The translations under genes and the position numbers were made by a program. DNA of 3,126 nucleotides, taken from the sequence record PZ195124.1, one strand, 5' to 3'. Of the stretch, positions 1-3,126 are shown piece by piece; the first letter of the stretch is position 1, and every line of letters starts with the position of its first letter. Under the pieces are notes generated by a model, which had not been told where the DNA came from, ran no database searches, and worked only from the letters and a program-made list of their open reading frames with translations. This DNA comes from a phage.

Positions 1-58
1 GTTTTGCATAAGCGACTCATTCCTGCAGTCTTTTCACCATGCCGTTAGGTTTAGGTGA

Positions 59-82
59 CGGTATGTTCCACATACCGGAGGA
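59..82 (+). promoter_or_regulatory. 5' UTR stem-loop abutting the maturation-gene ribosome-binding site
   Basis: Read directly: CGGUAUG (59-65) pairs with CAUACCG (71-77) around loop UUCCA (66-70), a 7-bp perfect stem. Its last G (77) is the first base of the GGAGGA Shine-Dalgarno (77-82), which sits 4 nt before the ATG at 86. By analogy with MS2, maturation-gene translation is controlled by 5' leader folding; that is inference here. Confidence 0.45.
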
Positions 83-85
83 TCT

Positions 86-1258
86 ATGTTTCCGAAGTCC
101 AATATAGACAGAAATTACAAGGTCAAGCTTGTATCTTACGATAAGAAGGGTAGGTTGGTTTCCGACGACTCTTTCGAGCAAGTCGAAAACTACCTCTTTC
201 AAAATCGTTCGAACACGTATAAACCTGGTTATCTCCGTCGTGACTTTCGAAGACCAACAAACTTTTGGAATGGCTTTCGCTATTTCAATCAGCCCATTGG
301 TACCTTCACTCGGAAACTCTCTGATGGTGGGAGACAAGTCGCCGACTATGGTATCGTGAACCCTAATAAGTTCACGGCCAACAGTCAGCACTTGGGGGAC
401 AACATGGTAATTTACCCTGGTCCCTTTTCTATAAATATTGACCAGCGTGCTTCTGTCGAAGTCCTCAATAAACTTTCGCAATCCAACCTCAATATTGGGG
501 TTGCGATTGCTGAAGCTAAGATGACTGCTTCATTACTCGCTAGACAATCTATAGCTCTCATCAGAGCCTACACTGCCGCAAGGCGCGGTAATTGGCGAGA
601 GGTGTTTTCGCAACTCCTCATCTCCGAACACCGTTTCAGAGCTCCCGCTAGGGATCTCGGAGGTCGATGGCTCGAACTGCAGTACGGTTGGTTACCTCTC
701 ATGGGTGATATGAAGGCTGCATATGATTTGCTTACGCAAACCAAATTGCCTGCTTTCATGCCTCTAAGAGTTACCCGAACCGTTGGCGGCACGCATAATT
801 ATAAAGTGCGTAACGTTGAATCTGCAGGGGATACATGGTCTTACAGCGATCGCTTGTCGGTGAATTACCGAATATGGTATTTTATCTCCGATCCGCGACT
901 CGCATGGGCCAGTTCCCTCGGGCTTCTTAACCCTTTAGAAATTTTCTGGGAAAAGACGCCCTGGTCGTTCGTAGTTGACTGGTTCTTACCTGTCGGTAAT
1001 TTGATTGAAGCCATGAGTAATCCTCTTGGTCTCGATATCATATCCGGCACGAAAACCTGGCAACTCGAATCAAAACTTAATGCGACGCTTAAGGCATCGG
1101 GTTGGTCTGGAACTGCAAAGCTGTCTGCGTACGCCAAGGCGTATGACAGGTCAACTTTCTATTCCTTCCCTACTCCTTTGCCTTATGTGAAATCTCCACT
1201 TAGTGGACTTCACTTAGCGAATGCATTAGCCTTAATTAACCAACGCCTGAAAAGGTAA
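86..1258 (+). CDS. mat: Maturation (A / assembly) protein, 390 aa
   Basis: Intact ORF from ATG 86 to TAA 1256-1258. An in-frame TGA at 56-58 closes the frame upstream and no alternative start lies between it and 86. GGAGGA precedes at 77-82. The product carries blocks I recognise from the MS2-family A protein: [81 protein letters not shown] and a C-terminal [24 protein letters not shown]. First gene in the standard mat-cp-rep order. Confidence 0.93.
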
Positions 1259-1262
1259 ATAC

Positions 1263-1279
1263 GGAGTTAGCCATATGGC
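1263..1279 (+). promoter_or_regulatory. Coat-gene ribosome-binding site and small palindrome around the start codon
   Basis: GGAG at 1263-1266 lies 8 nt before ATG 1275. GCCAUAUGGC (1270-1279) is self-complementary, giving a possible 3-bp stem GCC/GGC with loop AUAU that places the AUG in the loop and 3' arm. The stem is weak; a start-codon hairpin is known for MS2 coat but is only suggested here. Confidence 0.4.
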
Positions 1280-1667
1280 AACTTTACGCAATTTCGTACT
1301 CGTCGATAATGGCGGTACGGGGAATGTTACTGTCGTTCCTGTTAGCAATGCCAACGGCGTCGCTGAGTGGCTTTCTAATAACTCACGCAGTCAAGCTTAT
1401 CGCGTGACTGCAAGTTATCGTGCGTCGGGCGCGGATAAGCGCAAGTACACCATCAAACTCGAGGTACCGAAAATCGTTACCCAAGTTGTAAATGGTGTCG
1501 AGCTGCCTATCTCCGCATGGAAGGCTTATGCCTCCATTGACCTGACCATCCCGATCTTTGCTTCTACCGAAGATGTGACTGTTATTTCCAAGTCACTCGC
1601 CGGTTTGTTCAAAGTTGGGAACCCTGTTGCCGAAGCTATCTCTTCTCAGAGTGGCTTCTACGCTTAA
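1275..1667 (+). CDS. cp: Major capsid (coat) protein, 130 aa including the initiator Met
   Basis: ORF ATG 1275 to TAA 1665-1667. The product MATLRNFVLVDNGGTGNVTVVPVSNANGVAEWLSNNSRSQAYRVTASYRASGADKRKYTIKLEVPKIVTQVVNGVELPISAWKAYASIDLTIPIFAS... aligns along its whole length with the MS2 coat protein (FVLVDNGGTG.VTV, ANGVAEW, SNSRSQAY, RKYTIK.EVPK, GVELP, ELTIPIFA, GNP). From memory it is closer to the GA/BZ13 type. Length and position (second gene, 16 nt after mat) fit. Confidence 0.97.
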   Translation: MATLRNFVLVDNGGTGNVTVVPVSNANGVAEWLSNNSRSQAYRVTASYRASGADKRKYTIKLEVPKIVTQVVNGVELPISAWKAYASIDLTIPIFASTEDVTVISKSLAGLFKVGNPVAEAISSQSGFYA

Positions 1668-1858
1668 TGGGTCTGAAAGCAAAACATAAGGAAAACCTAT
1701 GTTCCGATTCACAGAGATCGAAAAGACTCTATGTATGGATCGCACTCGCGATTGTGCTATCCGATTTCACGTCTATCTTCAGTCATTGGATTTGGGGTCT
1801 TCTGATCCTCATTCTCCAGACTTTGATGGACTTGCCTACCTTCGTGATGAATGTTTAA
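1667..1858 (+). CDS. lys: Lysis protein L, 63 aa, single-pass membrane protein overprinted on the coat-replicase junction
   Basis: ORF ATG 1667-1669 to TAA 1856-1858. Its start overlaps the coat stop (UAAUG, 1665-1669) and 1699-1858 overlaps the replicase start in a different frame. The product has a basic N-terminal part (MGLKAKHKENLCSDSQRSKR) followed by a hydrophobic segment LYVWIALAIVLSDFTSIFSHWIWGLLILILQTLM with a Leu-Ser dipeptide (codons 1757-1762), as in MS2 L (LYVLIFLAIFLSKFT). No Shine-Dalgarno of its own, consistent with termination-coupled initiation. Confidence 0.85.
   Translation: MGLKAKHKENLCSDSQRSKRLYVWIALAIVLSDFTSIFSHWIWGLLILILQTLMDLPTFVMNV
1683..1703 (+). promoter_or_regulatory. 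Replicase translational operator hairpin (coat-protein binding site) containing the replicase SD and start codon
   Basis: AACAUAAGGAAAACCUAUGUU folds as lower stem 1683-1688 with 1698-1703, an unpaired A at 1689, upper stem G1690-C1697 and G1691-C1696, and loop AAAA 1692-1695. The replicase AUG (1699-1701) is in the 3' arm and AAGGA (1688-1692) acts as the SD. This matches the architecture of the MS2 operator ACAUGAGGAUUACCCAUGU (bulged A, 2-bp upper stem, 4-nt loop). Confidence 0.8.
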
Positions 1859-3126
1859 CTAAACATCCCTCACTGGGAGACAGTAATTCGGAAGCACGCC
1901 GTAAGGAATTGGCATATGCCAAACTTATGGATAGTGATCAAAGATGCAAAATCCAAAACAGCAACGGATACGACTACTCTCATATCGAGAGTGGCGTACT
2001 GAACGGTATACTCAAGACCGCTCAGGCCCTAATTGCAAACTTGCTCAAGGGTTTTGAATCTCACTTCCTGAACGATTGTTCGTTCTCCAACGGAGCCTCA
2101 CAAGGGTTCAAGTTGCAGGATGCAGCGCCGTTTAAGAAGATCGCTGGGCAAGCAACCGTTACAGCTCCTGCCTATGACATTGCCGTAGCCGCCGTTAAAA
2201 CGTGCGCGCCGTGGTATGTTTATATGCAGGAAACGTATGGTGATGAAACCAAATGGTTCCATCGGGTATACGGCAACGGTTTGTTTTCTGTTCCGAAGAA
2301 CAATAAAATAGATCGGGCTGCCTGTAAGGAGCCTGATATGAATATGTACCTTCAGAAAGGGGCGGGATCTTTTATAAGAAAACGCCTTCGCTCTGTCGGT
2401 ATAGATCTTAACGATCAAACGCGTAATCAGGAATTAGCCCGACTCGGCAGCATTGATGGTTCTCTCGCTACTATTGATCTCAGTAGCGCGAGTGATTCCA
2501 TCTCTGACCGCCTCGTTTGGGACCTGCTTCCTTCACACGTTTATTCATACCTCGCCCGCATTCGTTCATCATTCACTATGATTGATGGCCGTCTGCACAA
2601 GTGGGGTCTATTTTCTACCATGGGTAATGGCTTTACGTTTGAACTCGAGTCCATGATTTTCTGGGCTCTGAGTAAAAGCGTTATGCTGTCCATGGGTGTT
2701 ACTGGCTCATTAGGCATCTACGGTGACGATATAATCGTCCCTGTGCAGTGTGCCCCAACTCTCCTTAAGGTACTATCCGCTGTGAACTTTCTTCCTAACG
2801 AGAGGAAGACATTTACAACGGGTTACTTTCGTGAAAGTTGCGGTGCACACTACTTCAAAGGTGCCGACATGAAACCTTTTTACTGCAAGCGGCCAATGGA
2901 AACCCTTCCCGATGTCATGTTGCTTTGCAACAGGATAAGAGGTTGGCAGACCGTTGGTGGAATGTCAGATCCGCGGCTCTATCCAATTTGGAAAGAGTTC
3001 GCTGATATGATTCCGCCGAAGTTTAAGGGTGGATGCAACCTGGATCGCGATACTTACCTCGTTTCACCGGATAAACCCGGTGTTACTTTAGTTCGTGTCG
3101 CTAAGGTACGTTCTGGTTTTAACCAT
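1699..3126 (+). CDS. rep: RNA-dependent RNA polymerase (replicase beta subunit), 3'-truncated by the window edge; 476 codons present
   Basis: Hand translation from ATG 1699 to 3126 gives 476 codons with no stop: MFRFTEIEKTLCMDRTRDCAIRFHVYLQSLDLGSSDPHSPDFDGLAYLRDECLTKHPSLG ... GIYGDDIIVP ... FLPNERKTFTTGYFRESCGAHYFKG ... GGMSDPRLY. Shared blocks with the MS2 replicase include LQDAAP.KK, GNG.F.VPKNNKIDRAACKEPDMNMYLQKG, SVGIDLNDQ, GSLATIDLSSASDSISDRLVW, FSTMGNGFTFELESMIFWA, GIYGDDII, NFLPNE.KTFTTGYFRESCGAHY.KG and GGMSDPRLY. It is absent from the ORF track only because it lacks an in-window stop. Confidence 0.97.
   Translation, partial: MFRFTEIEKTLCMDRTRDCAIRFHVYLQSLDLGSSDPHSPDFDGLAYLRDECLTKHPSLGDSNSEARRKELAYAKLMDSDQRCKIQNSNGYDYSHIESGVLNGILKTAQALIANLLKGFESHFLNDCSFSNGASQGFKLQDAAPFKKIAGQATVTAPAYDIAVAAVKTCAPWYVYMQETYGDETKWFHRVYGNGLFSVPKNNKIDRAACKEPDMNMYLQKGAGSFIRKRLRSVGIDLNDQTRNQELARLGSIDGSLATIDLSSASDSISDRLVWDLLPSHVYSYLARIRSSFTMIDGRLHKWGLFSTMGNGFTFELESMIFWALSKSVMLSMGVTGSLGIYGDDIIVPVQCAPTLLKVLSAVNFLPNERKTFTTGYFRESCGAHYFKGADMKPFYCKRPMETLPDVMLLCNRIRGWQTVGGMSDPRLYPIWKEFADMIPPKFKGGCNLDRDTYLVSPDKPGVTLVRVAKVRSGFNH
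2719..2730 (+). other. Replicase catalytic motif C (YGDD)
   Basis: Codons TAC GGT GAC GAT at 2719-2730 are in the replicase frame within GIYGDDIIVP. The upstream motif-A-like IDLSSASDS (Asp codons 2476-2478 and 2494-2496) and motif-B-like STMGNGFTFELE (2614-2649) are also read directly. Confidence 0.9.

Follow-up and report, generated by a model that had tools for sequence, protein, structure and literature searches.

Sequence record PZ195124.1 as a complementary DNA copy of most of a GA-like RNA coliphage genome

We analyzed a stretch of phage DNA of 3,126 nucleotides (nt) from sequence record PZ195124.1, given as one strand 5' to 3' and called the window throughout, and compared its genes and predicted RNA structures with those of single-stranded RNA (ssRNA) phages. 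The window holds four genes, encoding a maturation protein (mat), a coat protein (cp), a lysis protein (lys), and a replicase (rep), together with a set of predicted RNA structures close to their starts (Table 1). A preliminary description, made by a model from the letters alone, had proposed that the window is complementary DNA (cDNA) of most of a GA/BZ13-like ssRNA phage genome and not cellular DNA. The gene order mat–cp–(lys)–rep, the product sizes of 390, 130, 63, and more than 476 amino acids, and the gaps of 16 nt between mat and cp (1259–1274) and 31 nt between cp and rep (1668–1698) on which it relied were each confirmed. Its statement that coding is confined to one strand holds for the real genes, all of which lie on the plus strand, but mechanical minus-strand open reading frames (ORFs) of up to 154 amino acids do exist.

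Table 1. Positions of the genes, motifs, and predicted RNA structures in the window
Feature	Position	Strand	Basis
Partial 5' untranslated region	1-85	+	Alignments to GA, KU1, and DL10
Predicted 5' hairpin abutting the mat Shine-Dalgarno sequence, 8-bp stem, UCC loop	59-77	+	-8.7 kcal/mol, z = -4.6
mat Shine-Dalgarno sequence GGAGGA, 3 nt upstream of the ATG at 86	77-82	+	Invariant in six genomes
mat, maturation (A) protein, 390 amino acids	86-1258	+	Pfam Phage_mat-A, 6e-62
Predicted coat-start hairpin	1264-1284	+	Both folds; -7.6 kcal/mol, z = -3.2
cp, coat protein, 130 amino acids including Met	1275-1667	+	Pfam Levi_coat, 6e-38
Predicted long-range pairing, 5' strand GCUUUC	1370-1375	+	Minimum free energy fold and RNAalifold; invariant in 10 of 10 sequences
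Predicted long-range pairing, 3' strand GAAAGC	1675-1680	+	19-24 nt upstream of the rep AUG
Predicted lysis-start structure, hairpin 1632-1658 closed by ACCC 1621-1624/GGGU 1669-1672	1621-1672	+	-19 kcal/mol, z = -3.5
lys, single-gene lysis protein, 63 amino acids	1667-1858	+	Pfam Phage_MS2_lysis, 9e-7 (29.3 bits, cut-off 25)
Predicted replicase operator hairpin, putative coat-protein binding site	1683-1703	+	Folds; invariant in 10 group II sequences
rep, RNA-dependent RNA polymerase (replicase beta subunit)	1699-3126, open at window end	+	Pfam RNA_replicase_B, 6e-215
YGDD catalytic motif, rep residues 341-344	2719-2730	+	Motif search of the translation

The gene set and order are those of the family Fiersviridae, with genes for maturation, coat, and replicase on one strand and Pfam scores far above the cut-offs. 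The mat product matched the MS2 maturation protein 5TC1_M at 5e-75 and, by analogy, would be the pilus attachment and RNA-binding protein; the cp product matched the GA capsid 1GAV at 6e-78 and the rep product the Qbeta replicase 3MMP at 2e-64. The rep frame extends over 1428 nt and 476 of ~532 codons without meeting a stop. The last letter of the coat stop TAA is also the first letter of the lys ATG (TAATG, 1665–1669), and nt 1699–1858 are double coding, encoding lys and, in a different frame, the replicase N terminus. The hydropathy profile of the lys product consists of a basic N terminus and a hydrophobic core with an L31–S32 dipeptide, and the protein has the "L-like" layout of single-gene lysis (Sgl) proteins. 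A genome-wide suppressor screen (PMC10229422) treated the lysis protein of phage KU1, 95% identical to that of the window, as an L-like Sgl protein.

All four genes, in the order mat–cp–lys–rep, are intact and under strong purifying selection. In comparisons with five genomes, the ratio of nonsynonymous to synonymous substitution (dN/dS) is 0.05–0.11 across mat, cp, and rep (0.05–0.10 in mat and 0.05–0.11 in rep), from which we conclude that the lineage is functional and replicating. The lys frame is open in five related genomes and its product 95–98% identical. Among six group II genomes, the background of synonymous variation in codons with an invariant amino acid is 50–75%; the variable fraction falls to 0–0.04 at 1706–1840, as expected from the dual coding of lys and rep.

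Other candidate genes were tried and rejected. The ORFs at 17–481 (minus strand, 154 amino acids), 568–792, 865–1137, 2098–2418 (minus strand, 106 amino acids), and 129–359, among others, were discarded because the homologous stretches of the relatives carry stops in these antisense or alternative frames. Across the whole window, sigma-70-like promoters numbered 2 versus 3.8 +/- 1.9 in shuffled sequences and terminator-like sites 4 versus 3.2 +/- 1.7, both at chance level, and a tRNA scan of the window found none. The chance-level counts support a warning of the preliminary description, that DNA-centered annotation would mislead here.

When the window was compared by megablast with 50,697 phage records, genogroup II genomes covered 100% of it in one piece (E = 0). 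The whole window aligned at 92.8% nucleotide identity to BZ13 strain DL10 (FJ483837), at 92.5% to BZ13 strain DL20 (FJ483839), and at 92.3% to phage GA (X03869/NC_001426), followed by BZ13 strain T72 (FJ483838; 85.0%) and KU1 (AF227250; 84.7%). Matches to MS2 and fr, at 73–75%, were limited to a few hundred nucleotides inside rep, MS2 reaching 73% over 13% of the window. In DL10, GA, and DL20, the annotated genes take the coordinates found in the window once constant offsets of –3, +50, and +43, respectively, are applied.

The protein comparisons gave the same ranking. Amino acid identities to GA, KU1, and MS2 are 95.4, 89.0, and 43.9% for mat; 95.4, 93.1, and 59.7% for cp; 96.8, 95.2, and 37.9% for lys; and 95.6, 90.1, and 54.4% for rep, so that the gene-by-gene check proposed in the preliminary description yields 95.4–96.8% for GA and 37.9–59.7% for MS2. 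Over its 476 residues, rep is 95.6% identical to that of DL10, 96.6% to that of DL20, and 90.5% to that of T72; identities fall to 55% for fr and 59.5% for AVE017 (474–476 aligned residues) and to 36–38% for Qbeta and SP. A tblastn search with the replicase returned 1670 matches, nearly all of them ssRNA phages. Best hits outside the leviviruses had been named beforehand as evidence that would count against an RNA phage, and all 1670 matches bear RNA-virus names.

We conclude that the window is almost certainly a DNA-letter (cDNA) copy of a GA-like genogroup II ssRNA coliphage genome, covering ~90% of it, that it spans nt ~52 to ~3176 of a positive-sense genome of ~3.47 kb, and that the virus is a probably F-pilus-specific coliphage belonging to Emesvirus japonicum (BZ13/GA), GA-like subgroup. 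The proposals of the preliminary description are borne out: cDNA of an ssRNA phage by the four Pfam levivirus families and the full-length megablast match (E = 0), likeness to GA/BZ13 by the top nucleotide matches (GA and BZ13 strains, 92–93% over the whole window), and genogroup II by the rep amino acid identity of 90–97% to BZ13, GA, and KU1 and of 54% to MS2. F-pilus adsorption is suggested by the 95–96% identity of mat to its counterparts in GA, DL10, and DL20, which were isolated on F+ Escherichia coli.

The window is given as DNA, and the sequence might instead be part of a DNA replicon (an integrated or endogenous copy, or cloned cDNA in a vector) and not belong to a replicating RNA phage. 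Records of RNA phages are all cDNA derived, so a laboratory clone and a reverse transcription–PCR (RT-PCR) product are indistinguishable by sequence. However, neither window end carries vector or host sequence, and megablast of the window drew no match from 72,556 plasmids or from 5,426 complete E. coli genomes (20,395 records). An operator 30-mer that is invariant in all group II genomes is absent from 185,579 prokaryotic genomes (one per species, GTDB). The flanking host genes that, according to the preliminary description, would betray a DNA replicon were thus not seen, there being no match to an E. coli genome or plasmid and no nonphage flank. Moreover, the divergence from relatives is overwhelmingly synonymous (dN/dS 0.05–0.11), and the RNA structures and the overlapping lys frame are kept, which argues for a replicating lineage rather than a decaying insert. 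We consider a DNA-borne copy extremely unlikely.

For the RNA-dependent RNA polymerase (RdRp), amino acid identity cut-offs of 80% for species and 50% for genus have been set (PMC8743537). The window's rep is 90.1–96.6% identical to those of the E. japonicum genomes, all values being at least 80%, and at least 50% identical to those of MS2, fr, and AVE017. With 90–97% to BZ13, GA, and KU1 and 54–60% to MS2, fr, and AVE017, we therefore assign the window to E. japonicum, the former genogroup II of Levivirus. The small lys gene overlapping the coat end and the replicase start agrees with the genus Emesvirus, as does the predicted lack of an A1 read-through product: a second in-frame stop lies two codons past the coat TAA, so no coat read-through extension is expected.

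Within the species, the UAAUG overlap is present and an insert of 18 nt typical of KU1 is absent, which puts the window on the GA side. In neighbor joining of the whole alignment, 100% of 500 bootstraps unite it with GA, DL10, and DL20 and 99% place it outside that trio. GA, DL10, and DL20 are mutually 94.2–94.7% identical, and the window is 92.4–92.8% identical to them; it thus appears as a basal sister lineage of the trio, diverged by ~7–8% of nucleotides. The four share gene order, product lengths of 390/130/63/532 amino acids, the 16- and 31-nt gaps, the UAAUG overlap, an identical operator hairpin, the lysis-control and coat-start hairpins, and protein identities of 95–98%. What sets the window apart is its nucleotide divergence, ~7–8% versus 5–6% within the trio, and its private amino acid substitutions (6 in mat, 4 in cp, and 10 in rep). 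Five full genomes of 3458–3486 nt had previously been described for GA-like genogroup II phages (PMC3499819).

Membership in the KU1/T72-like subgroup, or in genogroup I with MS2 and fr, would explain the same gene order and Pfam families. KU1 and T72 belong to the same species by RdRp identity (90%); their genes are the same, their operator hairpin is identical, and their lysis protein shares 95% identity with that of the window. The environmental contigs that the operator 30-mer recovered are, without exception, KU1/T72-like: the 30-mer, shared across group II, found in IMG/VR GA itself and five such fragments of 84–90% identity, and 26- to 28-mers private to the window had no match in IMG/VR. 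However, nucleotide identity to KU1 and T72 is 84.7–85.2% versus 92.3–92.8% to the GA-like genomes. In KU1 and T72, the coat stop and the lysis coding sequence are also separated by an 18-nt insert, which splits the lysis start and forms its own hairpin around the UAA, and three extra nucleotides stand before the operator; both inserts are found in all five environmental fragments and both are absent from the window. MS2 proteins, in turn, are just 38–60% identical to those of the window. Protein identities, absent inserts, and tree together refute both memberships, to which we attach next to no probability. KU1 and T72 are themselves 85.5% identical across mat and 96% across rep 1900–2440, a regional contrast far larger than any among the GA-like strains, which may reflect recombination within the KU1-like subgroup.

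The window could also be a mosaic, that is, a natural recombinant of different genogroup II lineages or a chimera of assembly or cloning. Its identity to the GA-like genomes drops to 84–87% at 2446–2670, the 5' end of the public DL20 record is itself chimeric, and recombination has been reported for environmental leviviruses (PMC3499819). However, the segment 2440–2680 is as variable among GA, DL10, and DL20 themselves (88–90%), so the dip is no sign of recombination; all five genome segments place the window nearest to the GA trio and slightly outside it, and there are no frame disruptions and a uniform dN/dS. We regard a mosaic as very unlikely.

The region around the coat, lysis, and replicase starts is predicted to be strongly structured. 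The 466-nt stretch 1255–1720 folds at –167 kcal/mol (z = –6.3 versus shuffles), and the key elements appear both in the single-sequence fold and in the RNAalifold consensus built from ten group II sequences. These are predicted and conserved, and we infer their functions from MS2 and GA. The coat-start hairpin holds A1275 and U1276 of the cp AUG in its loop and G1277 in its stem, with a Shine-Dalgarno sequence GGAG at 1263–1266; the single variable position of the hairpin (T/C) falls in the loop. We also observed that synonymous variation in the first third of the coat gene (1286–1420), where three hairpins and the 5' half of the long-range pairing are predicted, drops to 0.04–0.12 from a background of 0.5–0.75 in the six group II genomes. 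Columns 9–175 of the ten-sequence alignment are almost invariant.

The predicted long-range pairing joins a strand 95 nt into the coat gene with one 19 nt before the rep AUG. The MS2 strands 1427–1433 and 1738–1744 are complementary and stand 92 and ~17 nt from the same landmarks; we take their pairing to be the Min Jou interaction, through which translation of the replicase comes to depend on that of the coat gene. By position, the pairing in the window may be its counterpart. The lysis-start structure, found also in the consensus fold, encloses the UAAUG (1665–1669), an arrangement that fits termination–reinitiation coupling of lysis to coat translation. Its hairpin 1632–1658 corresponds to the GA feature 1683–1707, annotated "pot. 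function in lysis gene control".

The operator hairpin comprises a 6-bp lower stem, a bulged A1689 (–10), two G–C pairs, and an AAAA loop (1692–1695, –7 to –4), and buries the rep AUG (1699–1701) and an AGGA Shine-Dalgarno sequence. The bulged A at –10, the AAAA loop, and the rep AUG inside the hairpin conform to the operator of E. japonicum, and binding of the coat protein there is putative. In GA, the equivalent 1733–1753 is annotated "pot. binding site coat protein". The bulged A at –10 and the loop A at –7 and –4 have been described as critical for coat binding (PMC3561173).

By analogy with MS2 and GA, a role can be proposed for each of these elements. The phage RNA would serve as messenger RNA on which only the coat start is freely accessible, and ribosomes moving along the coat gene would open the pairing 1370–1375/1675–1680 and so allow replicase initiation. 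Ribosomes ending at the UAA 1665–1667 would reinitiate at the AUG 1667–1669 within the structure 1621–1672, giving little lysis protein. Accumulating coat dimers would bind the operator 1683–1703, shutting replicase off and nucleating packaging, while the maturation protein would be made from nascent strands and would attach the virion to the F pilus.

Nothing that we found contradicts a GA-like RNA phage, although several points limit the reach of this identification. Covariation support for the structures is thin, with three compensatory pairs in 141 by RNAalifold, since the sequences differ little and the key helices not at all. In Rfam (E <= 1), the sole match was the MS2 operator RF02359 at 18.1 bits versus 40 (E = 0.45), below threshold because that model was built on MS2's own sequence. 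The RdRp identities were computed on 476 of ~532 residues, the last ~56 lying outside the window. Beyond the window lie ~51 nt of the 5' end, among them the terminal hairpin, and ~290 nt of the 3' end. Finally, the RNA template, the F-pilus host range, coat–operator binding, and translational coupling are read from 90–97% identity to studied phages.

Fiersviridae genomes measure 3.4–4.3 kb and carry a 5' GGG-hairpin and a 3' ...CCA domain at their termini. In the coordinates of GA (3466 nt in all), the window runs from nt ~52 to nt 3176, and its missing 3' part comprises the final 56 rep codons and the 3' untranslated region. The DL10 record has the same start position (GA nt ~52), with a 2-nt indel in DL10 there (GTTTTGCATAAGCG versus GTTTTGCAAGCG); the common start suggests a shared RT-PCR primer site, so the first bases may be primer derived and not native. 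In the hairpin abutting the mat Shine-Dalgarno sequence, the G65–C71 pair of the window and GA is replaced by A–U in DL10, DL20, KU1, and T72, a compensatory change supporting the structure. An extra U66, common only to the window and DL20, turns a 7-bp stem with a UCCA tetraloop into the 8-bp stem with a UCC triloop. The mat Shine-Dalgarno sequence is equivalent to the ribosome-binding site annotated in GA at 127–131, and a search for an MS2-type upstream complement to it found only a 4-bp UCCU/AGGA possibility. As a separate observation, nt 1 to ~83 of the public DL20 record (FJ483839) are essentially identical to the MS2 5' end and continue as group II at the junction ACCATG/CCGTTAG; the switch may stem from natural recombination between the groups or, in the deposited record, from a chimera caused by a primer or by contamination.

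MS2 and fr (genogroup I, Emesvirus zinderi) belong to the same genus as the window, with an RdRp identity of 54%, above 50%. They share with it the overall architecture, an operator hairpin whose A at –10 is bulged and which has A at –7 and –4, a coat–replicase long-range pairing in the corresponding place, and a lysis gene of the L type that overlaps cp and rep. The MS2 L protein is 75 amino acids long, as stated in the preliminary description and confirmed from the NC_001417 annotation (1678–1905), and starts 50 nt inside the coat gene, whereas the 63-amino-acid L protein of the window begins right at the coat stop. The loop of the operator reads AUUA in MS2 and AAAA in the window, and nucleotide similarity is limited to patches inside rep. 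Qbeta and SP (Qubevirus, genogroups III and IV) belong to the same family and have homologous mat, cp, and rep genes, with rep at 36–38%. In Qubevirus there is no separate lysis gene, lysis being caused by A2, and an A1 read-through extension of the coat is made (PMC3561173); the window differs in its dedicated lys gene and in a coat frame that closes two codons after its stop.

Within rep, two blocks at ~2104–2162 and ~2272–2359 are almost nucleotide invariant across E. japonicum, E. zinderi (MS2 and fr), and E. piscicola (AVE017). Among codons with identical amino acids in the window and MS2, those in the blocks are identical in 12/15, 11/14, 13/17, and 18/20 cases (75–90%) and those overall in 124/258 (48%), and an equally protein-conserved control stretch at 2446–2505 reaches 7/19. 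RNAalifold predicts an 11-bp helix 2150–2160/2275–2286 with one compensatory change, closing a species-variable domain of ~115 nt, and a hairpin at 2312–2337, also with one compensatory change. These predictions suggest that the blocks form a conserved cis-acting RNA element, perhaps one already described. A bolder proposal, in which the window is an unsampled fourth GA-like lineage and the blocks are the strands of a functionally undescribed cis-acting RNA domain, such as an internal replicase or coat contact site, seems doubtful to us. The minus-strand 106-amino-acid frame at 2098–2418 is open in the window, DL10, GA, and DL20 but interrupted by stops in KU1 and T72; the simplest explanation of its openness is that it overlaps this synonymously constrained region.

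The phage type is already known, and the window represents an ordinary strain of a textbook virus. Among the records, contigs, and proteins of the collections searched, there was no identical relative and none above 92.8%, and the sequence may at most be an unsampled strain. Exact copies of the mat, cp, and lys proteins were absent from a collection of 15 billion proteins and from its contig index. Its annotation should list RNA phage genes and RNA regulatory structures, leaving out DNA promoters, terminators, and antisense ORFs. No new biological question is raised, and the sole wider loose end is the synonymously constrained rep region common with MS2. Genogroup II F-RNA coliphages are indicators of human fecal pollution in the water-quality literature, and a further divergent GA-like genome brings a slight gain for primer and probe design and for strain phylogeny.

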